Below, one piece after another: positions 1 to 53,199 of a stretch of DNA of 64,000 nt (position 1 is the first letter of the stretch; every line of letters starts with the position of its first letter). The DNA lies in IMG/VR virus record IMGVR_UViG_3300025015_000009, positions 1 through 64,000 of that record, one strand, 5' to 3'. This DNA is from a virus (lineage: Duplodnaviria > Heunggongvirae > Uroviricota > Caudoviricetes). The notes below the pieces were generated by a model. That model saw nothing but the letters and a program-made list of their open reading frames with translations. It had not been told where the DNA came from and did not search any database. The translations under genes were made by a program, and so were the position numbers.

Positions 1-34
1 ATCTTGGTTCCAGCTCATTTTATTTCTCCTTGTT

Positions 35-916
35 TTATGTTAGATAACGAATAATTACGATACCGGAGCCGCCGGTGCCGCCAGCAAAGCCTGGCGTACC
101 TCCACTGCCACCGCCGCCTCCGCCAGTATTTGCTGTACCCGCAGTACCCGCAGTTGTGCTAAAAATACCACCGTTTCCGCCACCTCCAAGACCGCCGTCG
201 CCGGGATTATTGCCATAAGCCGCCCTTCCACTTCCACCACCACCGCCGCCGTAATAAGTAGCTGAACCTGATATGGATGACAAAATACCTACACCACCAT
301 TGCCACCATAGGCACCATCTCCACTAGCAGCTTGTCCGACAGCCCCAGCGCCCCCACCTCCCCCGGCAGTAGCATCATCGCCAGCACCACCAGTTCCACC
401 GGAGTAACCTTGCCCACCTGTTCCACTACCGCTATTAGAACTTACCCCTGGCCCCCGCCCGCCGCCGCCGCCTGACCCACCGGGTCTCCCGCTAGAGTAA
501 TACCCGCCGCCGCCCCCGCCGCCGTTGGCTGTAATTGTAGAGAATGTAGAGTTGGTGCCATCACCACCAGGTCGCTCAGATGCTGGCGAACCGTCGTTAA
601 ATGAGGGAGCACCTCCAGCGCCAACAGTTATAGAATATGCTTGTGCTGTTACTGGAAAGCCTGTAGCAGCCCTAACTCCACCTGCTCCACCACCACCCGC
701 ACAAGTATCACCGCCAGCACCGCCACCTGCAACCACCAAATACTCAACATTCCCTGAACCGCTCGGAGTAAATGTTCCGCTCGAAGTAAACGTGTGGATC
801 GTGTAACCGCTGGCGTAGGTGATCGTGCCGCCTGTGGCAGAAAAAGCTACTCCGCCAGTAGCCAGAAGCATTTGCATTATCCCGCTCATGTTAGCCCCGT
901 GCCGCTGATAATCCAT
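35..916 (-). CDS. Glycine-rich (collagen-like) fibre-associated protein
   Basis: 293 aa, more than 50% Gly with GGxGG runs. Same strand as the downstream tail-fibre genes and overlaps their start. Confidence 0.4.
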   Translation of the reverse strand: MDYQRHGANMSGIMQMLLATGGVAFSATGGTITYASGYTIHTFTSSGTFTPSGSGNVEYLVVAGGGAGGDTCAGGGGAGGVRAATGFPVTAQAYSITVGAGGAPSFNDGSPASERPGGDGTNSTFSTITANGGGGGGGYYSSGRPGGSGGGGGRGPGVSSNSGSGTGGQGYSGGTGGAGDDATAGGGGGAGAVGQAASGDGAYGGNGGVGILSSISGSATYYGGGGGGSGRAAYGNNPGDGGLGGGGNGGIFSTTAGTAGTANTGGGGGGSGGTPGFAGGTGGSGIVIIRYLT

Positions 917-2067
917 TCTGTGCTTGTAACTTTAAGCGCAGTAGCCACCCCGTTCGCAGCAAGTGTCCTGCTGCCGGTAGTTCCGGCGCCAGCAAGGCGC
1001 ATCGTGTCAGTTGTGATAGCTATGGTGATTACGCCCCCTGCGTTCTGATTTACGAACGAGACCACCGAACCTATCGAGAATGCGACCGTGGTATTTGCCG
1101 GGATTGTGAACGTCCGCGCCGTTGTATCGGCAGATGGATGCAGGATGTGTTTGCCTGCGTCAGTCAATGCCAGGGTGTAGTTTGCCGATTGCGGATTTTG
1201 CAGAACGCCGAGGTAGGCGGCATCCGACACCGCCGTCCCATCAGCTTTCCTGACAAACACCCGATAGGTACTCGTGCTCTTGGCAACAAACGTCCAAACC
1301 TCACCAGCAGCAGAAGTCCGTGTCGCTGCGCCGTCAATATCGAAGGTAGCACCCTGCGTAAGTATCGTGCCAGTCAAGGGATAGAAATCACGGCTTGCAC
1401 CTGCTTGTGGTGCGTTGGCTATCGCTGTGATTGTTACCACTGCACCTGTGCCGTCCAGTACGTTACCGACCGCAGCAGCCCAGAAGTCCATCGTCGTGGC
1501 GTGTTGGGTGACATTGCTGCGAGCTGTGTTGATGCCACCTGTGAAGGTTTGACTGCCGGTGAAGGTGTTGGCACCGAGGATGGCAAGTGAGCTACTCGCA
1601 TCAGGTAACGTATAGGTCTTTTCTGTTGTTGTCGGGCCACTAAACTTAACAAATCCGTTGCCGGTGCCGCCATATGTTGACGCAATAATCTGAGTGAGCG
1701 AGTTAGATCCATCGAATGCGTTACCGTATATCGTTCTAGCAGTAGTTAACGTCGCGGCCGACCCTGTGATGGATCCATCGGCAAACGCAAGAGAATGGAC
1801 AGCCGTGCCATTATGGAACTTTAGAACCCCACCTTCGTTGTAGACATCCCCTGAAATTGGTGTGTTCCCAGATCCAGCAGGAATTAACAATGACCCACTA
1901 ACAGTGGCCGATACTGCTGGAGCGGTTATTTTCTTGGTTGCATTTAGCTGGCCGTTTATCGTAACGGCAGTTGATGTTACCGTGGCGATGTTTATGCTAT
2001 CTACTTCGATAACAAGTTCTGTTGTAGTGTATATTCTGTTAGAACTGTGATGGAACCCAATTGACAT
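886..2067 (-). CDS. Tail fibre protein (distal/receptor-binding type)
   Basis: Thr/Gly/Ala-rich. Contains IYGNAFDGSNSLTQIIASTYGGTGNGFVKFSGPTTTEKTYTLPDASSS, the same module repeated in the 53299..56847 protein. Confidence 0.6.
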   Translation of the reverse strand: MSIGFHHSSNRIYTTTELVIEVDSINIATVTSTAVTINGQLNATKKITAPAVSATVSGSLLIPAGSGNTPISGDVYNEGGVLKFHNGTAVHSLAFADGSITGSAATLTTARTIYGNAFDGSNSLTQIIASTYGGTGNGFVKFSGPTTTEKTYTLPDASSSLAILGANTFTGSQTFTGGINTARSNVTQHATTMDFWAAAVGNVLDGTGAVVTITAIANAPQAGASRDFYPLTGTILTQGATFDIDGAATRTSAAGEVWTFVAKSTSTYRVFVRKADGTAVSDAAYLGVLQNPQSANYTLALTDAGKHILHPSADTTARTFTIPANTTVAFSIGSVVSFVNQNAGGVITIAITTDTMRLAGAGTTGSRTLAANGVATALKVTSTEWIISGTGLT

Positions 2068-2234: not shown

Positions 2235-5198
2235 TTACGCATACGTAACATCGACTGTTGACACAATCGACGTCCACTTTATGTTTGTTGCTGCTTTCCC
2301 TGTTACCATTACGCTGATGCCGCCGTTTACAGTGTCTGATATTACGTTGCAGTCCAATGCAAAATCCGTTTCGAATAATTCCACCTTCGCTACACCTAAA
2401 ATAGTTGTTGATGCTGCATCGACACCGCGACGAAGCACTCCTGTAAAAAGGTAGCCCGCCGCAATACTACCCTCGCTTGCCTTCTGCATCGCAACCACTT
2501 GTACTCTAAAGTTAGAAGCAGAATAGTTTGGTAGAACAGGTTGTCCTGGGATCGCAGTTGGTGTAGCATCGGTTGTGGTTACTGTCAACGACGCGGTGCC
2601 CAATGATAATGTTCCGTTTGCGAACGACAACCCCTCACCAATTGTAATTGGTGCCCAACTCGACAACCTACCTTGTGTGTCGACTGTGATAGACTGTAAT
2701 GTTGTACCAGTCCCAGGGTTAGAAACAGTTGTAAGTGCCGCGACGTTTCCACCTAATGTAATACTAGCTGATCCGTTTAGTGTGTTTGTTCCACCGAACT
2801 GAGAGAACGATATTGCATTGGTTCCAACGACTCCCCCGGCTGTTGCGGTACAAGCCCAACTTGTTGTTCCGTTTGTTGTCCCAGATTCAACCCAACAAAA
2901 GGCGCCAGGCATTTCGACCCAACTGTTAAAGTCGGTTGCACGAGTCAACACAAATGCAGTTCCACCATCACCTAAGGTGGTCACTGTATAGATTCCGTTG
3001 TATGCAATCTTTACGTCAACCTCGTTCTTAATCAATACTCTCGAGTTTAATACAACTGATATGTTGTCAATTACTAACGCCCCTGGGGCAGATGCAGTTA
3101 TTGTTGCTCCTACTCCGTTGGTTCCGTTGTTATATGTGTATGTTGGTAACCCAACGGTAGTTGCTGCAACAACAGAACTTTTTGCGTCCATACCAAGCGC
3201 GACCGTGTCAACGTACCGTTTTGTTACGGCGTGCATATCCAATGTTGGGTCCACCGCTAATGTGACAGTTTTATTTGCAGCAACAGTAACATCGCCGTTC
3301 AACGATACTGCTCCGGTACCAGTTTTAAATACCCCAGACGACAGTGATTGATCGTATGCATATGCCCCAGCGGCAAAAGTAAGCCCCTGCAGACCACCTA
3401 ACGACAACGATGCGGCACCTAATGCAGTTGATGTTGTTCCGATGGTAATAGTCGAGTTCGATAGTGCTACATTCGGAATGGCAGTAAACCCTGTTCCTAT
3501 AGACCCTGCGGTTAGTGCTCCGACTGTTACAATTGAAGATTGCCCTGCGTATGTTGCAGCAATATCGATGCTATTTGTTGCAACTGATATTCGGTCAGCA
3601 GTCCCAACAACATCTAATAGGTTACCAGTCTTTATTAGTCCGTTACCAGCAAGAATTGATGTTGCAGCACTAAATTGTGTGTACGTAATTGCAGTAACAT
3701 CGATTGTTCCGCCGCCTGCAACTGTTGATATCCACCCGGTGTCAGCTTGGGTGTCACCTAGTTCTACCCAAACGTATGCGTTATGTATCTCAGTCCAGGT
3801 GTCTGAATCTGTTGCCCTCAACCAGGTACCAACTTGGGCAACATATATGCCGTTTTGAGATGCAGTAGCTTGGTTCTTAACCAATACTCGGTTGCCAGCG
3901 ATTACTGTTACTCCGTCTATTGTTGGTAAATCAGCAAGTGCAGCGATATCTGCTGTTGTTGCGACCTTCGCTGATGCTAGTATATCTAGTCCAACAACGG
4001 CGTTGTCGACATACTGTTTTGTAGCTGAATGAAACGGCAACGTAGGATCAGCTGATAACGTTAACGTCTTACCTGACCCAATCGTAGTATCTCCGTTTAA
4101 AGAAACCGCACCTGATCCAGTTGTAAATGAGCCAGTGCCGTTTTGTGTAAACGTGTTATTTGCTGCTACAGTGACGTTCCCGTTCAACGAGACTGCCCCA
4201 GTTCCAGTACTAAAAGCTGTTGCTCCAGTCTGGGTTATACTAGAGACTACGTTGCCGTTTAAACTAATATTGCCTGTTCCTGTAGCAAACGTGCCTGTTC
4301 CGGTGCCAGCAAACGAAGTTGCAGTTACTAATCCTGTTACAGGGTTAAATGTTAACACCGAAGACGACACTTTAACAGCGTTATTTCCAGTTGATGAGTC
4401 TACCCATGTTATGTATTTGGTTGCATCTGTAGCAACATCGTTTGTAACAGTCGCCGCGGATGCCACACTCGCTGTCCCTGACAATGACGCAGTGATCGTT
4501 GATGCTGAGAAGTTCCCGCTTGGGTCACGAGCAACAACTTTAGATCCGGTGTTTGCGTCGGTTGCGTCAACCGCCCATGTTGTTGTGGCAGCTCCTGTGA
4601 AGTTGTTCCCGGTTAAATATTGACCTCTGGTCAGTGTACTAGAAACGCTTGTTGCTACTCCGTATACTCGGGCAACTGTTAGATCTTTGTTAAGATTCCA
4701 TCTGTCGTCAGCGGAAGTATATAATATTGTTGCGTTAGCACCTTCTAGTGTGATGCCACCGCCGTTTGCTGCGGCAGCACTCACTGCACCGTTCGCTAAT
4801 ATGATGTTCTTATCTGCTATCTCTAAATCTGTTGTGTTGATTGTTGTCAGCGTACCATTGACAGTCAAGTGACCGTATATGTTTAAGTTGCCACCGATAG
4901 TAGTATCTTGTGTTACACCTAATCCACCGACTACAATTAACGCACCCGTAGTTGGTGTCGTAGAATTAATCGTGTCGTTACCGATTGTTATGGCTGCGGT
5001 AGTGTTAAATGCAACTGATCCAGACACTGTTAACGCATCGACTGCTAACGTAGCAATGGTAGCGTTAGGAAAAACAGCGGCAGTTAATAGTGCCTCTAAG
5101 TAAAGGACATTCGCGTTAATAGTGGTAAATGCAACACGTAACGGGTCACCTAGACCGTCATTCGGGAATTCGCCTGTGTAAACTGGTAGTATTGGCAT
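2235..5198 (-). CDS. Large tail fibre / long fibre structural protein
   Basis: 987 aa, beta-rich Thr/Asn/Gly composition. Internal repeats FxTGTGAVSLNGDVTV (four copies) and two TK(Q/R)YVD motifs typical of phage fibre proteins. Confidence 0.65.
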   Translation of the reverse strand: MPILPVYTGEFPNDGLGDPLRVAFTTINANVLYLEALLTAAVFPNATIATLAVDALTVSGSVAFNTTAAITIGNDTINSTTPTTGALIVVGGLGVTQDTTIGGNLNIYGHLTVNGTLTTINTTDLEIADKNIILANGAVSAAAANGGGITLEGANATILYTSADDRWNLNKDLTVARVYGVATSVSSTLTRGQYLTGNNFTGAATTTWAVDATDANTGSKVVARDPSGNFSASTITASLSGTASVASAATVTNDVATDATKYITWVDSSTGNNAVKVSSSVLTFNPVTGLVTATSFAGTGTGTFATGTGNISLNGNVVSSITQTGATAFSTGTGAVSLNGNVTVAANNTFTQNGTGSFTTGSGAVSLNGDTTIGSGKTLTLSADPTLPFHSATKQYVDNAVVGLDILASAKVATTADIAALADLPTIDGVTVIAGNRVLVKNQATASQNGIYVAQVGTWLRATDSDTWTEIHNAYVWVELGDTQADTGWISTVAGGGTIDVTAITYTQFSAATSILAGNGLIKTGNLLDVVGTADRISVATNSIDIAATYAGQSSIVTVGALTAGSIGTGFTAIPNVALSNSTITIGTTSTALGAASLSLGGLQGLTFAAGAYAYDQSLSSGVFKTGTGAVSLNGDVTVAANKTVTLAVDPTLDMHAVTKRYVDTVALGMDAKSSVVAATTVGLPTYTYNNGTNGVGATITASAPGALVIDNISVVLNSRVLIKNEVDVKIAYNGIYTVTTLGDGGTAFVLTRATDFNSWVEMPGAFCWVESGTTNGTTSWACTATAGGVVGTNAISFSQFGGTNTLNGSASITLGGNVAALTTVSNPGTGTTLQSITVDTQGRLSSWAPITIGEGLSFANGTLSLGTASLTVTTTDATPTAIPGQPVLPNYSASNFRVQVVAMQKASEGSIAAGYLFTGVLRRGVDAASTTILGVAKVELFETDFALDCNVISDTVNGGISVMVTGKAATNIKWTSIVSTVDVTYA

Positions 5199-18844: not shown

Positions 18845-19132
18845 TTACTGCCCGATTCCTCTGGTATCGTTTATGCCCCTGTGGGCAATATACCAATCAT
18901 GCAACAATATGCTAGATACTATACCGATTGCACCACCTAGTACAAACGCGACCAACTCAACCGACCCTGCATCCGGAACCAGCTTGAACGAGAATATCTG
19001 CATTGTTCCGATTCCCAACGATAGCAAGAACGACATTCCTTTTTGTCCAAGCCGAACTATTTGCGATTGAAACCCCAATAACAAGACAATAAAGAAACTA
19101 CTCGAAAACAGAAGAATCGAGTCAAATATCAT
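18845..19132 (-). CDS. Small membrane protein
   Basis: 95 aa with 2-3 predicted TM helices, embedded inside the paralogue array. Confidence 0.4.
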   Translation of the reverse strand: MIFDSILLFSSSFFIVLLLGFQSQIVRLGQKGMSFLLSLGIGTMQIFSFKLVPDAGSVELVAFVLGGAIGIVSSILLHDWYIAHRGINDTRGIGQ

Positions 19133-22914: not shown

Positions 22915-22949
22915 ATTATACACTCTTTAACCAAAAAGTCAACCGAAAT
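22915..22949 (-). promoter_or_regulatory. Conserved promoter cassette (copy)
   Basis: An identical cassette. It drives a small 56-aa ORF that is not in the track, at about 22718..22888 on the minus strand. Confidence 0.5.
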
Positions 22950-26300: not shown

Positions 26301-27317
26301 TTAAAACGAAACTTGCTTCATAACAAAGTCTCGGCAAATCTTACTGATAGGACCGTTCAGGTCTTTTCCGGTGAACCCAGACGCAGCAATAGTATCGAGT
26401 TCTTCTTTGAAAATGTCTTTCATAACATTCTTGATGAACTCGCCGAGTTTCGGAAGTTCAACTTCGCCGCCGTTCAGTAAATCAAAAGTAGTCTGCGCCA
26501 TCTGCTCCAACCGTCCGTTGTGAGCAAGTGTTTCAGCGAGCTGCTTGATGTCGTTGATTCGTTCAACATCAACCGTAGCAAGTGTCTTAACTTTCGACGC
26601 ACTGTGCTTTTCACCTTTAACTTTAAACCAAAATCCGGAATCAGAGTATGCTGGATTTACGCAACGCCACACAACCCCTTCGCCTACTCCATTTTCACCA
26701 AATGCGGTACCGACTGGACATGCAGCTTCGACGAGTTCTGTGATCTCATTGAGTTTATTCTGAACCTCATGCGGTGCGTCGAAATTAATCTCCATCTCGA
26801 ACCAGGGGAAGTAGTAGATGCAGTAGATGCCCGACGTTGTAGGGACTGTTCCGGTTGGCAACGACACGAGTTCCTCGCACACCGACACGACTTGGCTTCT
26901 TGTCAGATACGTTTTTTCTCCTGCACTGTCTACTGTAGCAATACCAAAAATAACAAACATCTTTGGCAATGCAGAAAGTGCAACACCTTTCTGAATACCG
27001 CTGCCACACCATTCACCAAAAATAACAATATCGTCATCAATCATGCCAGATGGGTCGAACAAGCAAGCGACGTTCTCAGCAATAGCCAGCAACGTTGTTT
27101 TGTTTGCTTCACAGAACATGGCTGATCCGGCATTGTCTTTCTCGGGCGTGATAATATTCTCACGTGATTGGCACCAGTACTCACCATTGGGGTGTACTCC
27201 GAATCCCAAGTTCGTATTATGGACACAAACGCCATTGGCAAAGAAGTTATGGTTTTTCCTAACTGACAAATCATAGCAAACCTCAATTGGAATTTCTTTT
27301 TTTCTCACTAATTTCAT
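26301..27317 (-). CDS. RNA ligase 2 (Rnl2-like) C-terminal fragment, preceded by an intein C-terminal segment
   Basis: The N-terminal 34 aa MKLVRKKEIPIEVCYDLSVRKNHNFFANGVCVHN carry intein blocks F and G. The extein TNLGFGVHP...FGEWCGSGIQKGV...EGVVWRC matches Rnl2 motifs I (second half), III and IV. Confidence 0.7.
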   Translation of the reverse strand: MKLVRKKEIPIEVCYDLSVRKNHNFFANGVCVHNTNLGFGVHPNGEYWCQSRENIITPEKDNAGSAMFCEANKTTLLAIAENVACLFDPSGMIDDDIVIFGEWCGSGIQKGVALSALPKMFVIFGIATVDSAGEKTYLTRSQVVSVCEELVSLPTGTVPTTSGIYCIYYFPWFEMEINFDAPHEVQNKLNEITELVEAACPVGTAFGENGVGEGVVWRCVNPAYSDSGFWFKVKGEKHSASKVKTLATVDVERINDIKQLAETLAHNGRLEQMAQTTFDLLNGGEVELPKLGEFIKNVMKDIFKEELDTIAASGFTGKDLNGPISKICRDFVMKQVSF

Positions 27318-28125
27318 CGCATAAATCCTTTATTTTATTAATTTGTTTTCGCGCGTTTTCAATCCACGCACTTTCCCAGATAACGATCGTTGTATATCCG
27401 ATCGATTTCAACATTTTATGTCTAGCAATATCTTTTTGCCACTTCTCACCAGCTGTCATCCGAATAGCAGAGTTATAATCTGACGCTTTGTATTTCCTTG
27501 GATTACAATGCCACATATCACCATTGTATTCAATTACAATTTTCAAGGTTTCATTACACTCGTCTACTTGCATCTGCCCAATTTGGACATGACTTTCAAA
27601 TCCGAGTTCTTCTATGAAACTATGTAAATCTGTGTGACCTTTAGACATATACCCGACACGAGTCTGGGCAAAAACTTTAGCAAAATGTTGAGCTGCATAT
27701 ATTGGATCTTTTAACTTTTCTTGTAATCCTTTACTTGCTCTGTTTACCTGGAGTACTTTCTCTTCATCTGTTTTCTTATTCCATCGTTCTGTTGAAAAAT
27801 TTCCGGAATTTAATTTTATGTTGCCATCAGCATAATGTGTACCGTTAAATCCGGCAATACTACACATCAACGGCCTTGCACATTTGCCACAGTATTCTTT
27901 GTTAATAATGTCAACTCGTTTAAAAAATACGTCAACACGCTCAGTAAAAATACTTAAACACTTATCACACATTACCTCGACTCTGGGTTTGGCAGTTTTT
28001 CGGCCATTCTTCCGATGCCAATTCTCTTTAAAATTTATAACATGTGGTCCCTTTAATATCATCGGCTGCCTTCTGATTGTAATAATTATAATTATATTTA
28101 TACAATAAAGCGTCGCACGGGACAA
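27283..28125 (-). CDS. Free-standing endonuclease (Zn-finger plus Vsr/DUF559-like PD-(D/E)XK domain)
   Basis: CDKC...CGKC zinc ribbon. The C-terminal IVIEYNGDMWH...D...R...GYTTIVIWESAW resembles the very-short-patch-repair-like endonuclease fold. It lies in a third reading frame between the two Rnl2 fragments. Confidence 0.45.
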   Translation of the reverse strand: MSRATLYCINIIIIITIRRQPMILKGPHVINFKENWHRKNGRKTAKPRVEVMCDKCLSIFTERVDVFFKRVDIINKEYCGKCARPLMCSIAGFNGTHYADGNIKLNSGNFSTERWNKKTDEEKVLQVNRASKGLQEKLKDPIYAAQHFAKVFAQTRVGYMSKGHTDLHSFIEELGFESHVQIGQMQVDECNETLKIVIEYNGDMWHCNPRKYKASDYNSAIRMTAGEKWQKDIARHKMLKSIGYTTIVIWESAWIENARKQINKIKDLCDEISEKKRNSN

Positions 28126-28126
28126 G

Positions 28127-28579
28127 TTATTCAGTAATCAAGTCATGTTCGCTGGTTAAATCTGTAGCTGCAATCCACCCAACGGTAGTTAATATCGGAT
28201 GATCTGAGGTACATTTTAGTATCGATCCGTCGTCGAAAACAAGTTCAACCCAGGGTTTGTCAAGAGTTTGTACAATTACCTCATTTACTACATCAAACTC
28301 AGTCTCTTTAGTCTCTTCATTGAAAGAAAGAACCGACGTTCCAGGATTAATATCCTGGATTTTTTCTTTTGACCCATCTGCTAACGTGATAAGAGTATCT
28401 TTATGAACGCACCCATGGAGCTTAACGGTTCCTTCGAATACTAACGTCGGGTTAGGAAGCAACTTGTTATAAATTGCATCACCGTTGTCATCCATACCAA
28501 CGTATGAAGAACGATGCTCAACATTACGAACCACGTTTCGGAACTGCTCGATCGAAGGGAATTTAATTAATCTGCTCAT
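28127..28579 (-). CDS. RNA ligase 2 N-terminal fragment followed by an intein N-terminal segment
   Basis: The extein ends ...FEGTVKLHG, which is Rnl2 motif I KxHG. It is followed by CVHKDTLITLADGS...TSDHPIL (intein blocks A and B), then a stop after about 94 aa. Confidence 0.7.
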   Translation of the reverse strand: MSRLIKFPSIEQFRNVVRNVEHRSSYVGMDDNGDAIYNKLLPNPTLVFEGTVKLHGCVHKDTLITLADGSKEKIQDINPGTSVLSFNEETKETEFDVVNEVIVQTLDKPWVELVFDDGSILKCTSDHPILTTVGWIAATDLTSEHDLITE

Positions 28580-28603: not shown

Positions 28604-28637
28604 ATGTAGACATTATACACTCTTTAACCAAAAAGTC
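28604..28637 (-). promoter_or_regulatory. Conserved promoter cassette (copy)
   Basis: Identical to the 11253 and 16125 copies. It drives the Rnl2 N-fragment. Confidence 0.55.
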
Positions 28638-28781
28638 AACCGAAAGATACCCGTTGTAACTAGTTGATTATTACATTTAATTTAGTTGGGTGTGCTGGAC
28701 AACATTGACATTAACTGTTGATAGGTTCCATTGATCCACCACGGCGCTCACCTCCAGCATCTTGCGCTCTTCTACAGCGGG

Positions 28782-32027: not shown

Positions 32028-33677
32028 CTACTGGCCGATTTTAGTCAAAAACTGACGAACTTGTTCTTGTTCAACATCGGTTAGATCGCTGACGTCGTAT
32101 ATGCCGCTTCCGAGCTGTTCGACTAAGTGTTGTATGTACTGTTCGTTATATGCATACGAATCAGTTGATGACTTAGTAACTTCGATCCAATCCTGGTCAT
32201 TCCATTTAAACAACCTCGATGGCAAGTAATCAACTCTAACAAACATATCGCCTTTAATCGGATTAATCGGAAACGCTATACCGAACCCAGAATTTGCTTT
32301 GTGAGCTACGTCGTTGTCGGCTTGCGCTGCTAACATTGCATCATATGCCTTCGCTGGAATAATCAACGGTTTTGTCGGAGATACTCCGGTTGCTGGTACA
32401 AGAGTTATATGCGATGTAACCTCTTCTGTTCGTTCTTCTGTTCGTTCTTCTGTTCGTTCTTCTGCTTGTTCCTCTACTATTGGGGTTGGGTTACCTTGTG
32501 CGCCAATGGCAGGAAACATGCTGACTACATTGCTCGAGTTTTCTGTGTCAAGCAATTCGTTTAGCCGGTCGGTCTCATCAGGAACACTGTCGAATACGGA
32601 TTGGTCGAATCCGTCCATCGATTGCCCGAACCCATCTGGTGACTCTGAATCACCAGTGTTAATGCACTGCGGTTCAAGCGGCATTGTGTCAACATCAATT
32701 GATTCAGTTGAGGTAATACTAATAACGACTGGGGCTCCAGTTAGTTTAACTAAAGACGGATTACACACTAAGTCGTATGTATTATACACAGCAATAGGGG
32801 TCACAGCAACAGGTTCTTGTTGTTCTTCTTTACTTTTCTCTGCTGCATCTTTCTCTAGTTGAGCCAGCTCTTTCTCTTCTCTGCGTCGAATGAGTTTTTC
32901 GGCTCGTTTCTTATCTCTTGCATCGTTGGCCCAATCCAGTGACGAAGTTGCTGCTAACAACAGCACGATAGCCAACGGGTCAAACACTGAAACAATAACG
33001 ATAATAACCCATCGCACTGCCGACTCTAATAGATTGGCATCGGGGTTGTCACCGTATATTAACGCAGCAATATATTTAATTGGTCCTACTTCTGCTTCGA
33101 CCTTACGAACCTGAGCAGCAATTGGAATTCGTTGTTCGTTCAGAGTTGTGATTTGTTTCTGTGCAGTTTCTATCTCTGTCTGAATTCGCTTTCGTTCTTT
33201 CTGTTGTGCTCTACGAATGTTATTTGACGTTAATGCACCGCCTTCGGTGGTAGACCTAGCCATTACTTGATCTACCGCAGCATCAAGTTGCGTTAATGCT
33301 TTTCTTTCAGATTCGATGTTCCCTTTGAGTATTGCGATCTTCTCGTCGTATATTGCAATTTGAGATTGCACGTCTCCAGATGTTAAGTTTTGGTCCACAT
33401 GGCTTTTGCTCAAGAATCCAAATGAGCCAAGACTTGTTAAGAACATCAACACAAATACAGCTGGAACCAAGTACATCTTTATACGAAGGCCTGCCTGCTC
33501 CCAATAATAATGCAACCATAACGTTGACATAATTTTAGCAAACTCAAGAGCACCTCCCATAATAATAATCGGTAAAAAGGCGGCAGAAAAGATAGCAGTT
33601 AACCCAATTATCGAGTAGTACGCGCTTGTTGCTGATAAAATAAGTGCAGCCAATAACGTTAATAGCGAAACTATCAT
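32028..33677 (-). CDS. Large membrane/coiled-coil protein with an (ERTE)n acidic repeat
   Basis: 549 aa. Four N-terminal TM helices, a long coiled coil, and EERTEERTEERTEE encoded by a 12-bp tandem repeat at about 32424..32465. Confidence 0.4.
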   Translation of the reverse strand: MIVSLLTLLAALILSATSAYYSIIGLTAIFSAAFLPIIIMGGALEFAKIMSTLWLHYYWEQAGLRIKMYLVPAVFVLMFLTSLGSFGFLSKSHVDQNLTSGDVQSQIAIYDEKIAILKGNIESERKALTQLDAAVDQVMARSTTEGGALTSNNIRRAQQKERKRIQTEIETAQKQITTLNEQRIPIAAQVRKVEAEVGPIKYIAALIYGDNPDANLLESAVRWVIIVIVSVFDPLAIVLLLAATSSLDWANDARDKKRAEKLIRRREEKELAQLEKDAAEKSKEEQQEPVAVTPIAVYNTYDLVCNPSLVKLTGAPVVISITSTESIDVDTMPLEPQCINTGDSESPDGFGQSMDGFDQSVFDSVPDETDRLNELLDTENSSNVVSMFPAIGAQGNPTPIVEEQAEERTEERTEERTEEVTSHITLVPATGVSPTKPLIIPAKAYDAMLAAQADNDVAHKANSGFGIAFPINPIKGDMFVRVDYLPSRLFKWNDQDWIEVTKSSTDSYAYNEQYIQHLVEQLGSGIYDVSDLTDVEQEQVRQFLTKIGQ

Positions 33678-34504
33678 ACTATGCGTTCTTTACAGTTATC
33701 AAAATGCCACCGTTTCATGTTATTGTTGCTTTTACTAACTATCGTACAGTGTGGGCAAACAATCTCAGTTCTCAGTGCCCACGAGCGTTTAGCCGATTCT
33801 GATCTAAGTTTTTTTAGTTTTTCTGCCATTGCTGCTCCATATATCTCTGCATACGTCTTTCCTTTATGACCGGTCTCTCTTCCGAGTAGTGCATTTCGAA
33901 TAGCAACTTTTCTTTTTTCAGTACACGATCCTGTTTTTCTACCTTTTTGTGCTAACGACAGTGCGGCACGGTGCTCGGCAGTTTTCTTAACACCGGTCAA
34001 GGCAATCGATACTTTCCTTCCATGCCCACTTGGTTTTGGCTTTTTTAACTTAGCAATAATAGTAGGATCAGTTGCCTTCTTTTTATTTGCCAGGGCAATA
34101 TTAGCTCTATGAGTCGCACTTTTCGGTTTCCCTTTGCTTGCAATTGACATCTTTAATTTGACCTCATCTGATGTTTTTAATCCTGCTGTTGACCATTTCT
34201 TAGTGTTTGTGTTAGGATCAACATATTGTTGATTTAAACACTTAGGGTCAGCTATATGAGTCATTATTAATAACTGTTCTAACCAATAGTAACTATCAAC
34301 ACTGTGCTCTCCTTCGAACAAAACAGTAAACGTAAACGCAGAAAGTCCGAAGTCTCTGATCTGCGCCTTAATAACTTTAGATGACGACAAATACCGTTTC
34401 CCTAAGTCTTGCCTGGCAGGAAGAGTATTCTTAAATCTGGAACCATAGTAATACTCAGATGTTGTCGTGTTTACAATAATGTATGTATACGGTAATATGC
34501 TCAT
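33674..34504 (-). CDS. GIY-YIG homing endonuclease with NUMOD-like DNA-binding repeats
   Basis: YTYIIVNTTTSEYYYGS is GIY...YIG. Repeated x-HRA-x-S-xA-xKG motifs. Confidence 0.6.
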   Translation of the reverse strand: MSILPYTYIIVNTTTSEYYYGSRFKNTLPARQDLGKRYLSSSKVIKAQIRDFGLSAFTFTVLFEGEHSVDSYYWLEQLLIMTHIADPKCLNQQYVDPNTNTKKWSTAGLKTSDEVKLKMSIASKGKPKSATHRANIALANKKKATDPTIIAKLKKPKPSGHGRKVSIALTGVKKTAEHRAALSLAQKGRKTGSCTEKRKVAIRNALLGRETGHKGKTYAEIYGAAMAEKLKKLRSESAKRSWALRTEIVCPHCTIVSKSNNNMKRWHFDNCKERIV

Positions 34505-48131: not shown

Positions 48132-48524
48132 CTAAACTAGAATACTACCTTTAGGAACCGATTGAATACCCGATGTCGTTTCGATGTAATGCTGCTGTAG
48201 CCGGTCAACTATCTCGCACGGAATCATAACATGACTCTTTTGAATAGTTACAGGTTTATTGGGATTCATTGATATCACAGTTTGCATTAACCCTAAACCA
48301 GTTGCGCTGGGGACCACTGTCATTGGTTTCGATACGATATATGCAGTTGGTGTTTCTTCAACTAGCTTCGCTAATACTTCTTCTGAAGTAACAAGTTTCA
48401 AACAGATTACTTCTCCTACACTAATTCCTTTTGTTATAAGCATGTCGATCCCTTTAAATAAGTTCGCACGAGTTACCTGTGCATGATAATGTTTGTGATC
48501 CTTCGGTTTTGTCTTCGTGCTCAT
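48132..48524 (-). CDS. Hypothetical protein
   Basis: 130 aa. Confidence 0.3.
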   Translation of the reverse strand: MSTKTKPKDHKHYHAQVTRANLFKGIDMLITKGISVGEVICLKLVTSEEVLAKLVEETPTAYIVSKPMTVVPSATGLGLMQTVISMNPNKPVTIQKSHVMIPCEIVDRLQQHYIETTSGIQSVPKGSILV

Positions 48525-49467
48525 TGACTACAAACTGATCCCAGTTAATCTTCGGAGTAAGTTTTAACTGTTCTTCATATTCTGCCTTTGAAATCGGTTG
48601 ATACGGTGCTTGAGCATAGGTATGTTCGCTATACGGCAGGAACGATATTCCACCGATCTCATCAAAGTGTTCGTACACCCATGCACCGACTTTCATCCAT
48701 TCGTGCTCACGTACATATACGGTTATAGACACGGTATGCTCTGCCCAATTACGGTAAAACATCAAGTAATGCTCAAGTTGATCAATTGCTGTCATCTCAG
48801 ATGCAATACGGGCATGTGACGGTGACTTAGTCGGAAAACTAAACACCCAGGTTTTATCTGGTTTAGTAACTTCGTCTTCACACTTTATCCCTTGCTCTTT
48901 AAGAAACATTCCGATCGGATCAAGTTTGTCGCTGCGAACAGTTCTAACATAATAATGAGAGTAACGAGGATGAATTCCCGATGAACTATCTACTAATTGT
49001 GATACCGTGCCCGACGGCTTCGTTGTTGTTACGGCTACAGATTGGTTAATGCCTAACTTCTCTGCCCATACCTTGTTTGTTTCGATTGCACATTCTTTCA
49101 TTTTCGTTAACCAAGTTACTGCTTCATCGTTAACGTATCCTAGAACCTGATGGTCCATAATGCCGGTTAGTGACACTCCCAATAGACGTTCCTCTTCTGC
49201 GTTCTTCTTCCAAATGTTTCTTAGATACCTAAACGTAGTTAAACTAGACTGAAACGTACCTACGATAGTAGCAAGTTCTACTTTCTTCAATAATGACTCT
49301 AAAGTGTCATGTTCGCGAATAATTACTTCAGATAAGTTGCAAAATCCGGCTGATCTTAAGAATATTTCACAATTATGCACTAACACATCATTTGCAAAAA
49401 AGTTGCTTGTTTCTGGGACAGTAAAATCATATACATCTTCGTGCCCATCTTCTTCTATTATTAACAT
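48454..49467 (-). CDS. nrdJ: Class II (NrdJ-like) ribonucleotide reductase C-terminal fragment, preceded by an intein C-segment
   Basis: The N-terminal 32 aa MLIIEEDGHEDVYDFTVPETSNFFANDVLVHN carry intein blocks F and G. The extein starts CEIF, completing the N-P-C-C-E active-site motif with the previous fragment. The C-terminal CTGNSCELI is the CxxxxC redox tail. Confidence 0.7.
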   Translation of the reverse strand: MLIIEEDGHEDVYDFTVPETSNFFANDVLVHNCEIFLRSAGFCNLSEVIIREHDTLESLLKKVELATIVGTFQSSLTTFRYLRNIWKKNAEEERLLGVSLTGIMDHQVLGYVNDEAVTWLTKMKECAIETNKVWAEKLGINQSVAVTTTKPSGTVSQLVDSSSGIHPRYSHYYVRTVRSDKLDPIGMFLKEQGIKCEDEVTKPDKTWVFSFPTKSPSHARIASEMTAIDQLEHYLMFYRNWAEHTVSITVYVREHEWMKVGAWVYEHFDEIGGISFLPYSEHTYAQAPYQPISKAEYEEQLKLTPKINWDQFVVNEHEDKTEGSQTLSCTGNSCELI

Positions 49468-50525
49468 TAAAATTTCTCCGTCATAGTTTGGTTAATTAAC
49501 TCAATTATTGATTTTGGTTTTGCATCGAAAGTAAATATCATTCCCGCATAATTATTTTTCTTAGCATAATCAAATGCTCCGTTTATTTTTACACTTAAAT
49601 ATTGTTTCTTGTTCTTCTCTAATAAAAATCCTTTTGTTTCTAGTATATACGTTTTCCCATTGTAAGTAAATATGAAATCTGGTTTATATGTTGTGTTTTC
49701 TAATACGATGCGAAACGGTTCGTAGTCCCAAGAAATTTTATTTGCTTCAAAAAAATCTATATAATTAGATTCATACGACGATCTGGTTAGAACATAATCA
49801 AGACCTCTCTTATGAAATATAAGATCTGTTTTGTCTATACGTTTAAATATTTTTGATCCACAAACATCAGAACAATACAACGCATGATGCCATGCTTTCC
49901 ACTTGTATCGTAACTGCATTAATTCTTCAGTGGGCAATAACACGATTTCATCATACGTAATTTTACTAAAAGTGTCTTCTAACTTGTGTTTTTTGATAAA
50001 ATTAATTATGCTTTTAGCAATAACCCGAGGGTTGAACTGTTTCTTAGACTCATATTGACTATTTAAGTTAATAACATCATTGTCATTCAAGGTTGCTACT
50101 TCGTCATATCCAACTGTTTTTAACTTTTTTCGTAAAAACGAAATAGTATTAACCTCTTTATTGTGCAATTTTCCCTTTTTCATTAACGTTGCGTTAAATG
50201 CTGCGTTTTGCCCAGACGCTGCCAATGCTGACATAAATTTAGAATGTTCTGGGCGTTTTTTACCATACAAAAAGTTACATTCTTTATTTCCGCAGTATCC
50301 GTCGAATTTTACACCCAACACAGCTTGTGAAGATCTGAGAACTCGTTTTGGTTTGCCGCAGCCACACAGCATTTGTTCTATTGTCCACTTTTTATTAACC
50401 AAATAATGGTCTACTACGTTCACATCGATACCCGATAATGCAATATATTCACTTTTATTCATGTGACAACCCTTGTGTTTTATACTATTATTTATCTTTT
50501 TAAAATAACTCACAAGGGTTATCAC
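49467..50525 (-). CDS. Free-standing homing endonuclease (Zn-finger plus PD-(D/E)XK)
   Basis: CGCGKP...C...C zinc ribbon. YKPDFIF...YILETKG is a D...ExK nuclease core. It lies between two RNR fragments. Confidence 0.5.
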   Translation of the reverse strand: MITLVSYFKKINNSIKHKGCHMNKSEYIALSGIDVNVVDHYLVNKKWTIEQMLCGCGKPKRVLRSSQAVLGVKFDGYCGNKECNFLYGKKRPEHSKFMSALAASGQNAAFNATLMKKGKLHNKEVNTISFLRKKLKTVGYDEVATLNDNDVINLNSQYESKKQFNPRVIAKSIINFIKKHKLEDTFSKITYDEIVLLPTEELMQLRYKWKAWHHALYCSDVCGSKIFKRIDKTDLIFHKRGLDYVLTRSSYESNYIDFFEANKISWDYEPFRIVLENTTYKPDFIFTYNGKTYILETKGFLLEKNKKQYLSVKINGAFDYAKKNNYAGMIFTFDAKPKSIIELINQTMTEKF

Positions 50526-50530
50526 CTTCT

Positions 50531-51619
50531 TTATCCGATTAATAATTCGTCATCTGGTTTAATATCTTTTGCCATAATATAACCTCTATTCTTAGTATAA
50601 ACTAGATGATCTTCTGTTACTCGTATAAATTTATTAGTTTTTGTATCGGTTATTTTTAATATCTTAGCATTATTACGAGTCAATGTTGCTGTGGTTACTT
50701 GATTGAATTCTGCTTCATTTTTTTCTAAATTAAACGATCTAATATATATATCGTCGCCACGTTCGTACAATGCAACAGCATCGTCAACGGTCATTCTATA
50801 TTCAATTTCATTGAGTTTAATATCAACTATCATATCACCAGAAACACAACAAGGATTTGCCCCCAGGAACATCTCTTCTGCCTTCTTGGCATCTCGTCTA
50901 CCCAGCTTCTTTATTTTATGCAACGCTGCTTGACGATTAAAGATACCACGCTCACCAGATTTAGATTCATACAACGACTTCCATTCTTGCATAAACACTC
51001 CCATATCGGGTTTTTCTGTATATGCAACAGAATTGTTAGCAAGAGCACGTTGAGGATTGTCTATCCACCATTGCCCGTTTTTAGCACTTCGCATCCTGTC
51101 GTCAGATAAGTTCGACAAAGAAATCTGCGCTGATCTCCTTACACCACCTACGACAATTGCAGATGCTATGCTGTTTAGAATATCGTGACATTCAATTGAC
51201 TGCAATTTACGGCCAGCAGCGTTTCTAAATACGCGAACTGTGAACTTAAATAACTCTTCCAGTGGTGTGGGACCAGAGCTTCTACCACCGAACGTCTTCA
51301 ACGGCGCGCCAGCAGGACGCAATGCGGTTAGGTCCCACTTCGGCACTTGGCCAGAGTATAGCATTGCAATCAACTCTCTAAACGCCGACGACCATCCAAT
51401 TTTCGAATCTCTCACCTTTATTACAGTATCAGTTTCGTGAAAATCCTCAGAGACTGCCGGCAATCTAGATACTGCTTGTCGTTCAACTGAAAACCCCACT
51501 CCTGATCCACAGTTATGCACGAGTGCGCCATTGCTTAACACAAAATTATGATTGATCGGAACGGTAATGTCCCAATAATTTCTTTCGTCTTTGATTATAC
51601 TCTTCTTAATTATCTTCAT
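50531..51619 (-). CDS. nrdJ: NrdJ-like RNR middle fragment flanked by an intein C-segment at the N-terminus and an intein N-segment at the C-terminus
   Basis: The N-terminal MKIIKKSIIKDERNYWDITVPINHNFVLSNGALVHN is a C-intein. The extein CGSGVGFS...LRPAG... matches the NrdJ glycine loop and ELRP region and ends ...GANPC. Then CVSGDMIVDIK...TEDHLVYT is an N-intein, followed by a stop. Confidence 0.7.
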   Translation of the reverse strand: MKIIKKSIIKDERNYWDITVPINHNFVLSNGALVHNCGSGVGFSVERQAVSRLPAVSEDFHETDTVIKVRDSKIGWSSAFRELIAMLYSGQVPKWDLTALRPAGAPLKTFGGRSSGPTPLEELFKFTVRVFRNAAGRKLQSIECHDILNSIASAIVVGGVRRSAQISLSNLSDDRMRSAKNGQWWIDNPQRALANNSVAYTEKPDMGVFMQEWKSLYESKSGERGIFNRQAALHKIKKLGRRDAKKAEEMFLGANPCCVSGDMIVDIKLNEIEYRMTVDDAVALYERGDDIYIRSFNLEKNEAEFNQVTTATLTRNNAKILKITDTKTNKFIRVTEDHLVYTKNRGYIMAKDIKPDDELLIG

Positions 51620-52493
51620 TATTTTTCCTTTTTATATTGCCTCTCGTCCATCCAACCGGATCTTCTCCTGGGGTAAATCTCTTTACTATTATACCATTAT
51701 TAAAATTTACTTTACCTTTGTTGGCTAAACTAATTTTATCCTTTACGTCTTGTCTCTTAGATGGATTGTTGTTCCCGCTTGTTTGCGGCCGAGCTACACC
51801 AATTTGTGCTTTACTAATTTTATCCTTTACATCTTGTCTCTTAGACGGGTTATTGTCTCCCCAATGAGAGGTTTTACCCAAATTTCCTAATACCCATCCT
51901 AGTGGTTCTGTCCCAGGACGAAACCTCTTAACTATTGTTCCGTTGTTATAATATTTTGCACCTTTACCTGAGTCTGGAATTTGTCCAGGTAATCTACCTC
52001 TAATCCATCCTAGTGGTTCTGTGCCCGGTGTGTATCTGTATTCTGCCGTTTGATTGTTAAAATACTTCTTACCTCTTATACTAGAACTCGTGTATTTCTT
52101 TAATTTAGTCTCTACTGTATCTTTTTTACCTGTACGTGCGTTACTTAGATTCTGTTTATGTGAGTCAGTAAAAGGTAATTGCTTATACTCTCCCAAGACT
52201 CCCCATTTAAATGCATGAGGGCATGTATTTTTTTGATTATAGTAATTAGTATCAAATACTGCATTTAGTTCGTTTATAATATCAAATTCTTTCTGATATA
52301 ATTCTTTTGCAGAATTGAACTCGAAGTGCAGTATTTGTCTCTTAAATGAATCGATCCCGTATTTGTTAATTGCAGCCACAAAGTATGTCCCCGAACCGAT
52401 ATACCCATCATCTACTCGACCAACATGAGAACCTACATACATTTTACCATTGATTAAATTTACCCACTTATATACAAATCCAATATATTCCAC
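51606..52493 (-). CDS. GIY-YIG homing endonuclease with NUMOD repeats
   Basis: YIGFVYKWVNLINGKMYVGSH is GIY...YIG. KRQDVKDKIS occurs twice. It lies between RNR fragments. Confidence 0.7.
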   Translation of the reverse strand: MEYIGFVYKWVNLINGKMYVGSHVGRVDDGYIGSGTYFVAAINKYGIDSFKRQILHFEFNSAKELYQKEFDIINELNAVFDTNYYNQKNTCPHAFKWGVLGEYKQLPFTDSHKQNLSNARTGKKDTVETKLKKYTSSSIRGKKYFNNQTAEYRYTPGTEPLGWIRGRLPGQIPDSGKGAKYYNNGTIVKRFRPGTEPLGWVLGNLGKTSHWGDNNPSKRQDVKDKISKAQIGVARPQTSGNNNPSKRQDVKDKISLANKGKVNFNNGIIVKRFTPGEDPVGWTRGNIKRKNNEDN

Positions 52494-52533
52494 ATTGCCT
52501 CCACATACTTTATTTATGCGGCACTAGGGTACA

Positions 52534-53199
52534 CTAACCTATTTCGTTATAATTTTTTATCTCGTCGACCTCGGTTAAATCTTTAGCCTCTACCCATCCA
52601 CGATTGTTAGTGAAAAACTTGTGGTCAGCAGTGCAACGAACAAATGTCCCATCTTCGAACTCTAATTCGATTTTGTCTCTGTGGCTTGACGGGGTTTCCG
52701 CTATAACAGACGGGCATGTATATTCGAATTGGTTAAGCTCAGTATTAAAACTTAACACTTCGTCAGTATAAACTAACTCAGATATTTTCTTATCACCTAA
52801 TTTAGTTTTAACCATTGTGTTAGGTTCAAAACACATTAGCAAATACATAGTCTCATCGAATGCGCGCGGATCATCAACTGCAATGTACGCACAATTGTAC
52901 CCGGCAGCCGCATCGCGCTCAAGGGCTTTACCGGCAGTCATTAATGCTCGCATCGACGGCATAACTTCTAGCTTGTTAATTGCATCGTATACTTCTTCTT
53001 TTGGAAAAAGACCTGGATACTTCTCGTCAAAGAACGTAACATACCGACTTATTGTTTCTTCCCAGGTTTCTCGTCGCTGCAAATCTGGAATGTACCTAGC
53101 GTACCTACTCATAGCAATGTATCGTTGGTAGTCTGACATGTTACTGTAATTGGATTTCATTTTTCTCTTTTCTTTAATTATTTGGTGCGGCCAGAACAC
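52534..53199 (-). CDS. nrdJ: NrdJ-like RNR N-terminal fragment followed by an intein N-segment
   Basis: SRYARYIPDLQRRETWEETISRY...MPSMRAL... is typical of the class II RNR N-terminus. The extein ends ...MYLLM. Then CFEPNTMVKT...CTADHKFFT (intein blocks A and B) and a stop. Confidence 0.7.
   Translation of the reverse strand: MFWPHQIIKEKRKMKSNYSNMSDYQRYIAMSRYARYIPDLQRRETWEETISRYVTFFDEKYPGLFPKEEVYDAINKLEVMPSMRALMTAGKALERDAAAGYNCAYIAVDDPRAFDETMYLLMCFEPNTMVKTKLGDKKISELVYTDEVLSFNTELNQFEYTCPSVIAETPSSHRDKIELEFEDGTFVRCTADHKFFTNNRGWVEAKDLTEVDEIKNYNEIG

Follow-up and report, generated by a model that had tools for sequence, protein, structure and literature searches.

We propose that the 64,000-nucleotide stretch of viral DNA analysed here (the window), which belongs to a phage that is T4-like by its rIIA and rIIB genes, carries an Rnl2-like ATP-dependent RNA ligase gene that has very likely been fractured at motif I by a mobile cassette. 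The cassette would consist of the N-terminal half of a split intein (IntN), a homing-endonuclease gene of the Vsr/EDxHD type and the C-terminal half of the intein (IntC). The three open reading frames (ORFs) lie where the initial annotation had placed them, all on the minus strand and each in a separate frame. The features of the locus are:

28612..28639, minus strand: sigma-70-type promoter (TTGACT, 16-nt spacer, TATAAT), 32 nt upstream of the ATG of the N-fragment
28579..28127, minus strand: N-fragment, 150 aa, reading ...FEGTVKLHG, then CVHKDTLITLADGS...TSDHPIL...DLITE and a stop
28412..28579, minus strand: N-extein, ligase residues 1-56, ending with K53-L-H-G56 of motif I
28127..28411, minus strand: IntN with its TAA stop, 94 aa, Cys1 (block A), T-S-D-H (block B), charge -13
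28095..28102, minus strand: TATAAATA, late-promoter consensus of the T4 type, downstream of the N-fragment stop and upstream of the endonuclease start
27283..28062, minus strand: free-standing endonuclease gene, 259 aa (mechanical bounds of the ORF, 28125..27283)
27283..27317, minus strand: dual-coding overlap of 35 nt, endonuclease ...CDEISEKKRNSN and stop versus IntC MKLVRKKEIPI, in different frames
27317..26301, minus strand: C-fragment, 338 aa, reading MKLVRKKEIPIEVCYDLSVRKNHNFFANGVCVHN, then TNLGFGVHP...
27216..27317, minus strand: IntC, 34 aa, charge +3, YDLSV...NHNFFANGVCVHN F/G blocks, His-Asn end
26301..27215, minus strand: C-extein with its stop, ligase residues 57-360 (304 aa), Thr+1 first

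Both fragments read in the sequence as they had first been described: the N-fragment is an extein ending in KLHG that continues into an intein N-domain and a stop, and the C-fragment is a 34-aa intein C-segment followed by TNLGFGVHP. An AAGGA ribosome-binding site lies upstream of the C-fragment ATG. The likely start codon of the endonuclease is the ATG at 28062: a GAAGG lies 8 nt upstream of it, and gene callers chose it on identical contigs.

Joining of the two exteins restores motif I as KLHGTN. In a phmmer alignment with T4 Rnl2, VKLHGTN is paired with EKIHGTN and FGEWCG with the FGEFAG of motif III, and the alignment runs across K35 and motifs III and IIIa. The initial annotation had identified the join as Rnl2 motif I and had suggested aligning the joined exteins to T4 Rnl2; the alignment agrees with this assignment at motifs I, III and IIIa. 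The adenylated lysine of T4 Rnl2 is K35, and K53 is the predicted adenylated lysine here; K53, H55 and G56 are invariant in a 58-sequence alignment (A4). The C-extein contributes motifs III (FGEWCG), IIIa (FVIFGI), IV (EGVVWR) and V (FKVKGEKH), followed by what appears to be a helical C-terminal domain. Motifs IV and V were assigned by pattern, and their residues E235-G236 (IV) and K254 and K256 (V) are invariant in A4. The later motifs noticed at the outset, FGEWCGSGIQKG and EGVVWRC, are both present. The joined extein has the fold of an Rnl2/REL1-like nucleotidyltransferase and scores 61 bits against Pfam PF09414 RNA_ligase (cut-off 27) and 30.4 bits against the NCBIfam equivalog TIGR02307 “Rnl2 family” (cut-off 197), while the C-fragment matches PHROG 548 “RNA ligase” at 1e-45. 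The nearest ligase systems are T4 RNA ligase 2 (PDB-codes: 1S68, 2HVQ) and the PF09414 clade that includes trypanosome REL1 and Naegleria NgrRnl. The break falls directly after the active-site KxHG, as had been claimed: KLHG is followed immediately by Cys1, and among the nearest 120 homologues K-x-H-G-[TS]-N is uninterrupted in about 113. In the empty alleles L011 and L012 the DNA is continuous across the insertion site.

The residues flanking and terminating the intein halves point to a class-1 HINT split intein with intact splicing residues (Cys1, TxxH, His-Asn and Thr+1). Cys57 of the N-fragment, directly after KLHG, corresponds to Cys1 of the intein; every allele retains it, and so do at least 56 representative clusters. 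The TxxH of block B is T124-S-D-H127 (within KCTSDHPIL), with T124 and H127 invariant in alignment A1. Block G reads ...GVCVHN in the window and is followed by TN, whose threonine is the +1 nucleophile; HN followed by TN is also found in L004, L006, L007, L014 and P0090/P0114, and HN followed by SN in L013. When joined, the halves score 35.3 bits against NCBIfam TIGR01445 (cut-off 24.5) and 32.2 bits against TIGR01443 (cut-off 15.6), and together with the splicing residues and the F/G blocks these scores bear out the split intein first suspected here. Taken singly, the halves reach 29.4 and 24.1 against Pfam PF14890, both under its gathering score of 35.8. IntN matches the Intein_splicing, Hint and PT-HINT profiles of Pfam, and IntC matches positions 134-155 of the 155 in Intein_splicing. 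Among solved inteins, the joined halves match NrdJ-1 (8ubs, E 3e-8), the Spl DnaX mini-intein (7cfv, E 3e-11) and also gp41-1 (E 0.006). NrdJ-1 and gp41-1 (PDB-codes: 8UBS, 6QAZ), both from fractured genes, are similar in their class-1 HINT fold, split position and half lengths (94 + 34 aa here), whereas the host, the flanking extein residues (HG before and TN after the intein) and the +1 residue (Thr) of the ligase intein differ from theirs. The polarity of an acidic IntN and a basic IntC is as in NrdJ-1, NrdA-2 and IMPDH-1 (PMC2677866).

The ligase is the third split-intein locus of the window, as the initial annotation had counted: two more split inteins interrupt a class II ribonucleotide reductase (NrdJ) gene at 48454..53199. 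A nuclease ORF at the NrdJ locus (49467..50525) was considered as a relative of the ligase-locus endonuclease and rejected, the two being unrelated in sequence at 19% identity.

The ORF between the ligase halves had been described as a separate-frame gene for a zinc ribbon plus a Vsr/DUF559-like domain, and four cysteines, a fold match to Vsr and DUF559 and invariant catalytic residues sustain this description. The N-terminal part contains a four-cysteine zinc ribbon (C32, C35, C58, C61) followed by helices; the cysteines are nearly invariant, and profile matches to zinc fingers are weak. Domain and profile searches of this N-terminal region returned no NUMOD or HTH match. A nuclease domain of the Vsr/EDxHD type makes up the C-terminal part (about residues 140-235). 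Its fold matches Vsr, DUF559 and I-Bth0305I; sequence-only searches made no connection between the endonuclease and I-Bth0305I. Residues D167, E178, D182, H185 and D211 do not vary among 41 sequences, and E178 precedes H185 by 7 residues, which is the spacing from F62 to H69 in Vsr. A family-specific glutamate at the position of Vsr F62 was described by Dassa et al. (PMC2677866) and by Taylor et al. (PMC3239194). From the spacing and the descriptions in these papers, we infer that the endonuclease residues correspond to Vsr D51, F62, H69 and D97. The putative homing endonuclease would work like the I-Bth0305I family, but with another DNA-binding module. I-Bth0305I (Taylor et al. 2011, PMC3239194; PDB-code: 3R3P) is encoded by an intron of a phage recA gene and carries two N-terminal NUMOD/HTH motifs, whereas the enzyme described here, with its four-cysteine zinc ribbon and helical region, comes from a free-standing gene between the halves of a split intein.

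The sigma-70-type promoter matches the consensus at 11 of 12 positions. The minus strand of the window contains five nearly identical 29-nt copies, this one included, against 0 expected from shuffled sequences. We infer that it acts early. The TATAAATA box occurs at the equivalent position in alleles L004, L005 and L013. On the coding (minus) strand of the 64-kb window it is found three times, which is about chance level; enrichment was therefore rejected as evidence, and it is the positional recurrence that argues for the box. A hairpin holds TATAAATA in its 5′ arm and covers the ribosome-binding site of the endonuclease with its 3′ arm. Compared with shuffled sequences, this hairpin is significant in L013 (z of -3.2) and weak and not significant in the window (z of -0.66 and 0.21).

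On this basis we hypothesize that the promoter at 28639..28612 would transcribe both ligase fragments, which would then be translated separately, the C-fragment from its own ribosome-binding site within the 3′-terminal part of the endonuclease gene. IntN, which is acidic (-13), and IntC, which is basic (+3), would associate and trans-splice G56 to T57. The predicted product is a 360-aa ligase with the junction peptide ...GTVKLHGTNLGFGVHPNGEYWCQSR and with K53 open to adenylation. The single fragments are expected to be inactive, as the nucleotide-binding motif is divided between them. The endonuclease is probably silent early, through the hairpin over its ribosome-binding site, and the TATAAATA box would drive its late expression. 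In a mixed infection with a related phage whose ligase allele is uninterrupted, the endonuclease would cut that allele near the motif I codons AAG CTN CAY GGG and ACN AAY (in a synthetic uninterrupted allele the sequence across the join is ...GTTAAGCTCCATGGG directly followed by ACGAACTTGGGATTC...), and recombinational repair would copy the whole cassette into the cut allele. After fixation of the cassette the endonuclease would be free to decay, while the split intein would be kept, since the ligase depends on splicing.

Several alleles resemble successive stages of such a cycle. The three-gene layout is also present in L004, L007, L013 and L014, the exteins of which are only 45-64% identical; the ORF frame relations in L004 are, by coordinates, unlike those in the window, and the overlap between endonuclease and IntC is kept in all four. 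The endonuclease is intact in the window, L004 and L007, a pseudogene in L006 and deleted to about 60 nt in L005. Mini-inteins in contiguous form also occur at the ligase site. Among 1.84 billion representative proteins scanned, ligase N-fragments with K-x-[HD]-G followed by Cys and IntN make up at least 56 clusters at a 50% identity threshold, from two ligase lineages, so that the insertion site is apparently common in metagenomes. On an extein tree (neighbour-joining without support values), split alleles are scattered among unsplit ones. Between alleles, pN is 0.12-0.25 for IntN, 0.06-0.18 for IntC and 0.27-0.40 for the exteins, while pS is saturated in both intein and exteins (0.7-0.9; 0.73-0.93 in the IntN comparison). 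Judged by these values, both intein halves are under purifying selection. We give only pN and pS and dropped dN/dS, because with saturated synonymous sites the Jukes-Cantor dS is undefined for most pairs. The comparison of intein and extein divergence reveals no detectable recent horizontal transfer, since the order of relatedness is the same in both and synonymous sites are saturated. The patchy distribution could stem from repeated loss rather than repeated homing.

Is the fractured arrangement real, and does it yield a ligase? An assembly or sequencing artefact would mean that in the true gene the intein is contiguous and the endonuclease in frame with it, and that the stops or frameshifts are errors. 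The metagenomic origin of the DNA and the lack of a match among deposited phage genomes raise this as nothing beyond a general possibility, and we assign it next to no probability. The initial annotation had called for verification of the frames, and the 2.3-kb locus is 100% identical in three independent sample assemblies (ENA ERZ27254728, ENA ERZ27254745 and Logan SRR1658465; the database lists 17 contigs that carry the C-fragment). This identity across independently assembled metagenome contigs argues against an artefact, as do the three frames, in which each ORF has its own start and ribosome-binding site, and the recurrence of the layout in at least five diverged alleles and already in the literature (PMC2677866). 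The ligase could also be dead: a homing-endonuclease gene would then have inserted into a ligase with an intein, and the fragments would be decaying remnants without a product. The endonuclease does decay in L006 and L005. Rnl2-type ligases of phages are generally dispensable, which we counted on the same side. We nevertheless regard a dead ligase as very improbable, because pN is well under pS in the exteins as well as in the intein halves, the latter being the most constrained. In addition, the ligase motifs and splicing residues are intact in every allele, the start codons, the ribosome-binding sites and the MKLV... start of IntC are conserved among alleles, and the N-fragment form is kept in all of the clusters counted above.

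If the ligase is alive, the halves might still assemble non-covalently via the intein halves and work without splicing. Precedent comes from NrdA of phage Aeh1, whose parts, separated by mobE, are reported to come together again with no intein involved (PMC3045599, cited in PMC2677866), and at locus L010 a related ligase has a second break without an intein. Against this, Cys1, TxxH, His-Asn and Thr/Ser+1 are kept in all alleles and are needed only for splicing, and a 128-aa intein at G56/T57 would sit inside the nucleotide-binding motif beside the catalytic lysine. We consider non-covalent assembly quite unlikely. Finally, the middle ORF may encode a repair or anti-competitor nuclease of the Vsr/DUF559 type that happens to sit in the gap. 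Its best structural neighbours include Vsr, which is a repair enzyme, and an uncharacterised protein of the DUF559 type, and a nuclease at a phage gene boundary could act in phage-phage exclusion (PMC10448857). Endonuclease homologues sit between ligase halves in six of the six contexts examined, and we judge such a role to have only a slight probability. We favour a trans-spliced ligase whose split intein houses a homing endonuclease.

An arrangement of this kind is already known, as the “fractured gene” that Dassa, London, Stoddard, Schueler-Furman and Pietrokovski first described in 2009 from phage-like metagenomic loci (PMC2677866). Common to both is the order of N-extein with IntN, a free-standing endonuclease gene (GIY-YIG or Vsr-like) and IntC with C-extein, and in both the break lies between intein blocks B and F, where endonucleases are canonically inserted. 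The endonuclease/IntC overlap of 35 nt compares with 6-69 bp in 15 loci of that study. The TATAAATA box upstream of the endonuclease and the T4-like phage context are likewise as described there; a hairpin, which in that study often holds the box, is weakly predicted upstream of the endonuclease in the window. The endonuclease-free allele L005 has its parallel in gp41-7. The hosts listed in PMC2677866 are gp41, IMPDH, DnaE, NrdA, NrdJ, DNA ligase, terminase and one unknown protein, with no RNA ligase among them; the fractured NrdJ of the same window thus belongs to a listed host. By comparison, the RNA ligase is another host protein with another insertion site, and its +1 residue is Thr (Ser in L013). 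Within the literature and records searched, the host gene and the insertion site are new. The literature searched, which does not extend to most subscription journals or to InBase, contained no description of an Rnl2-type ligase with an intein, and the split-ligase example is absent from 50,697 deposited phage records. Against these records, 20 kb of the window gave no match by megablast, and the locus gave by blastn only an 83-nt match to the RNA ligase gene of Caulobacter phage Cr30. Exact 40-mers of the window had no match in genome and viral contig collections.

Could the fracture have been co-opted? With the split placed between the catalytic lysine and the remainder of the ligase, RNA-ligase activity would hinge on trans-splicing after translation, a step that might gate RNA repair in infected cells by time or by condition. 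Compatible with this idea, the split intein outlasts the endonuclease (L005, L006), is more constrained than the ligase and occurs in the 56 or more clusters of two ligase lineages. All three observations are equally expected from an intein trapped in an essential site and therefore do not single out co-option, which we regard as unlikely. Our understanding of inteins or homing is unchanged by the ligase locus. The natural split inteins gp41-1, NrdJ-1 and IMPDH-1, which stem from fractured loci of this kind, are the fastest known protein-ligation tools. The ligase site offers many diverged and presumably orthogonal pairs, with a short IntC of 34 aa and Thr or Ser at +1. An Rnl2-like RNA ligase and a site after the glycine of motif I, beside the adenylated lysine, would join the short list of fractured genes, and this site is an insertion hot spot, given the number of clusters and the two lineages in which it is occupied. 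The alleles provide snapshots of the homing cycle at one site, with the site empty or the endonuclease intact, decayed or deleted, and a clade of Vsr-type endonucleases appears to be tied to a single target.

The RNA ligase locus of this window comprises three consecutive minus-strand ORFs, each in a different frame, as seen in both the ORF listing and the raw sequence, which the locus coordinates and peptide strings of the initial annotation match exactly:

28579..28127, minus strand: N-fragment, 150 aa; MSRLIKFPSIEQFRNVVRNVEHRSSYVGMDDNGDAIYNKLLPNPTLVFEGTVKLHG, then CVHKDTLITLADGS...KCTSDHPILTTVGWIAATDLTSEHDLITE and a stop
28125 to 27283, minus strand: open frame of the middle ORF (endonuclease); plausible start ATG 28062, giving 259 aa
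27317..26301, minus strand: C-fragment, 338 aa; MKLVRKKEIPIEVCYDLSVRKNHNFFANGVCVHN, then TNLGFGVHPNGEYWCQSRENIITPEKDNAG...
28611-28639, minus strand: sigma-70-type promoter, TTGACT, 16 nt, TATAAT; 11/12 consensus matches
28102..28095, minus strand: T4 late-promoter consensus TATAAATA, after the N-fragment stop and ahead of the endonuclease ATG

Gene callers also pick the 28062 ATG on identical contigs; GAAGG precedes it by 8 nt. The 3' end of the endonuclease gene overlaps the 5' end of the C-fragment by 35 nt. For practical purposes we exclude an artefact of sequencing or assembly, because three contigs from independent assemblies of different samples match the window with 100% identity over the whole locus, and because the three-gene layout recurs in the diverged interrupted alleles L004, L007, L013 and L014, whose exteins are only 45-64% identical. 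The frame relations of L004 are unlike those of the window. The exact C-fragment, endonuclease and N-fragment sequences are each present on at least 12 contigs (NCBI, JGI, ENA, Logan), which reach 318 kb.

Residues 57-150 of the N-fragment match Intein_splicing, PT-HINT, Vint and Hint, and residues 13-34 of the C-fragment match the final 22 positions of Intein_splicing. Joined, the halves pass the curated cut-offs of NCBIfam intein_Nterm (35.3 bits; cut-off 24.5) and intein_Cterm (32.2 bits; cut-off 15.6), and among solved inteins they match the Spl DnaX mini-intein (3e-11), NrdJ-1 (3e-8), 4o1r, an intein within a replicative DNA helicase (6e-7), and gp41-1 (6e-3). All class-1 catalytic residues are present (Cys1, T-S-D-H, terminal His-Asn, Thr+1). 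The acidic IntN (net charge -13) and basic IntC (+3) have the polarity of NrdJ-1, NrdA-2 and IMPDH-1 (Dassa et al., PMC2677866). The initial label "Rnl2-type" is correct for the clade of the ligase, but the Rnl2 equivalog TIGR02307 scores only 30 bits (cut-off 197), and T4_Rnl2_C has no match in the joined ligase, which belongs to a distinct Rnl2-like lineage. Among annotated genes, the ligase is closest to those named "RNA ligase / RNA ligase 2 / RnlB" in Caulobacter phage Cr30 (43%), in Ralstonia phage RsoM2USA, and in several Salmonella and Cronobacter phages.

The locus has the "fractured gene" arrangement of Dassa et al. 2009, who described 26 metagenomic loci with split inteins parted by a free-standing endonuclease gene, of GIY-YIG or Vsr-like type, with endonuclease/IntC overlaps of 6-69 bp and with hairpins and TATAAATA ahead of the endonuclease gene (PMC2677866). 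By the scheme described there for fractured genes and Aeh1 mobE, early read-through transcripts conceal the ribosome-binding site, and late transcripts, which begin within the hairpin, expose it (PMC2677866). The ligase locus fits this scheme. Its TATAAATA box, found at the equivalent position in L004, L005 and L013, falls in the window within a predicted hairpin, on its 5' arm; the 3' arm lies over the endonuclease ribosome-binding site. Compared with shuffled sequence, the hairpin of the window does not stand out (z -0.66), but that of L013 does (z -3.2), and the three minus-strand copies of TATAAATA in the 64-kb window are about the chance level. We infer such regulation from positional recurrence, not from statistics. 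The sigma-70-type promoter, 32 nt ahead of the N-fragment ATG, would drive the N-fragment; its 29-nt sequence TTGACTTTTTGGTTAAAGAGTGTATAATG, with conserved spacer, has five near-identical copies in the window (none expected from shuffles), probably a repeated early-promoter cassette:

11252-11280, 16125-16153, 22914-22942, 28611-28639 and 41655-41683, all minus strand: near-identical promoter copies

About 113 of the 120 best ligase homologues are uninterrupted (340-370 aa, contiguous K-x-H-G-[TS]-N), and five are IntC-led C-fragments. The nearest, P0002 (68% identical), is uninterrupted and reads AAG TTA CAT GGG ACT TGC over the insertion site. Interrupted alleles are scattered over a neighbour-joining extein tree, each beside uninterrupted sisters; as the tree lacks support values, the pattern is only suggestive. 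The window, L004, L007, L013 and L014 have an intact endonuclease. In L006 (969..1492) it is a pseudogene, 5'-truncated, with the zinc-ribbon region deleted, one stop and one frameshift; in L005 (1..130) about 60 nt of it remain in the interval from the N-fragment stop to the C-fragment start, and one frame there still encodes ...WIENAQKYIDRIR.. Both split-intein halves are intact in these two alleles, which are stages of endonuclease decay. Between alleles, synonymous sites are saturated in all parts (pS 0.7-0.9), and pN is lowest in the intein halves (IntN 0.12-0.25, IntC 0.06-0.18) and higher in the exteins (0.27-0.40) and endonuclease (0.31-0.36). Therefore the intein halves are under strong purifying selection, as expected if splicing is the sole route to ligase. 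The split arrangement is also old and did not arrive recently. All six endonuclease homologues whose context was examined are flanked by a ~150-aa fragment bearing Hint and by a C-fragment with PF09414, and therefore this nuclease clade appears tied to a single insertion site.

Elsewhere in the window, a class II (B12-dependent) ribonucleotide reductase (48454..53199, minus strand), where GC falls to 0.37-0.38, is cut by two further split inteins into three ORFs:

52534-53199, 50531-51619 and 48454-49467, all minus strand: ribonucleotide reductase pieces

The gap at 51606-52493 holds a GIY-YIG (SegE-like) endonuclease gene, and that at 49467-50525 a different nuclease ORF with a weak Phage_endo_I match, 19% identical to the ligase-locus endonuclease. 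Another free-standing homing-endonuclease-like gene (33674..34504, minus strand; PHROG 314 at 8e-26, no Pfam match) has directly downstream a 549-aa ORF without PHROG match (32028-33677) and nearby rIIB (35292-36332) and rIIA (36329-38341), which identify the phage as T4-like. A 118-aa repeat-rich ORF immediately ahead of the ligase locus (28782-29138; HREDGPA units, weak DUF6745 match) contains the second of two 142-nt stretches (23031-23171 and 28849-28989) that are 82% identical and look like paralogous repeat-protein genes. Window 1..2000 (GC 0.547 vs ~0.42 in the rest; ORFs 35-916 and 886-2067, the latter without PHROG match) may be a recently acquired segment, and the 89-nt tRNA-Asp with unusual anticodon ATC called by ARAGORN at 18969..19057 (minus strand) could be a spurious call or else an atypical phage tRNA.

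When the N-fragment was searched by phmmer against 1.84 billion representatives of 50% identity clusters, at least 56 of the best 150 matches were short proteins ending in IntN directly after K-x-[HD]-G. The N-extein is short, as in the window, in 27 of these clusters; in 29 (P0194-P0306) it has 160-200 aa with a PHA02142 OB-fold domain and ends ...TEK[IVL]HG, then C and IntN, which marks a second lineage of RNA ligases, broken at this same residue. Contiguous mini-inteins without endonuclease occupy the same site in other PF09414 ligases:

2926..4293 of IMGVR_UViG_3300027896_000010 (L009): 455 aa; KVDG, CFDYESLV...ILVHN, SQ
P0231: 439 aa; EKIHG, then CLRADS...

Thus, ligase motif I is a general intein hot spot, mainly in split form and apparently undescribed so far. 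The new host and site are abundant in metagenomes. A distant OB-fold-bearing RNA ligase (L010, 2440..6065 of IMGVR_UViG_3300031813_000072) has two breaks, one at motif I (NKLHG, then CVHEN...) with a split intein, a 307-aa Vsr-like endonuclease and an IntC-bearing piece of only 86 aa, the other with an opposite-strand GIY-YIG gene (4532-5290) and no intein; the final piece has motifs III-V.

The hosts of Dassa et al. 2009 (gp41, IMPDH, DnaE, NrdA, NrdJ, DNA ligase, terminase and one unknown protein) do not include RNA ligase (PMC2677866), and full-text literature searches yielded no publication that describes an Rnl2-type ligase with an intein; the RtcB-like and tRNA-splicing ligases listed in a 2025 actinobacteriophage intein survey are other enzymes. 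By tblastn against 50,697 deposited phage genomes, the exteins matched only uninterrupted ligase genes, and IntN matched other hosts only (Campylobacter phage NrdA, Salmonella phage S16 UvsW-type helicase, Lak phages, terminase). The initial observation of a ligase interrupted within motif I is confirmed, its interpretation is supported, and we regard the fractured-gene explanation as very probable. A mechanism in which trans-splicing would restore KLHGTN and the endonuclease would home the cassette into empty ligase alleles is strongly supported by comparison of sequences. The kind of arrangement is already known; the host and insertion site are new. The finding is unsurprising in principle and is of value to protein engineers and to specialists in inteins and homing endonucleases.
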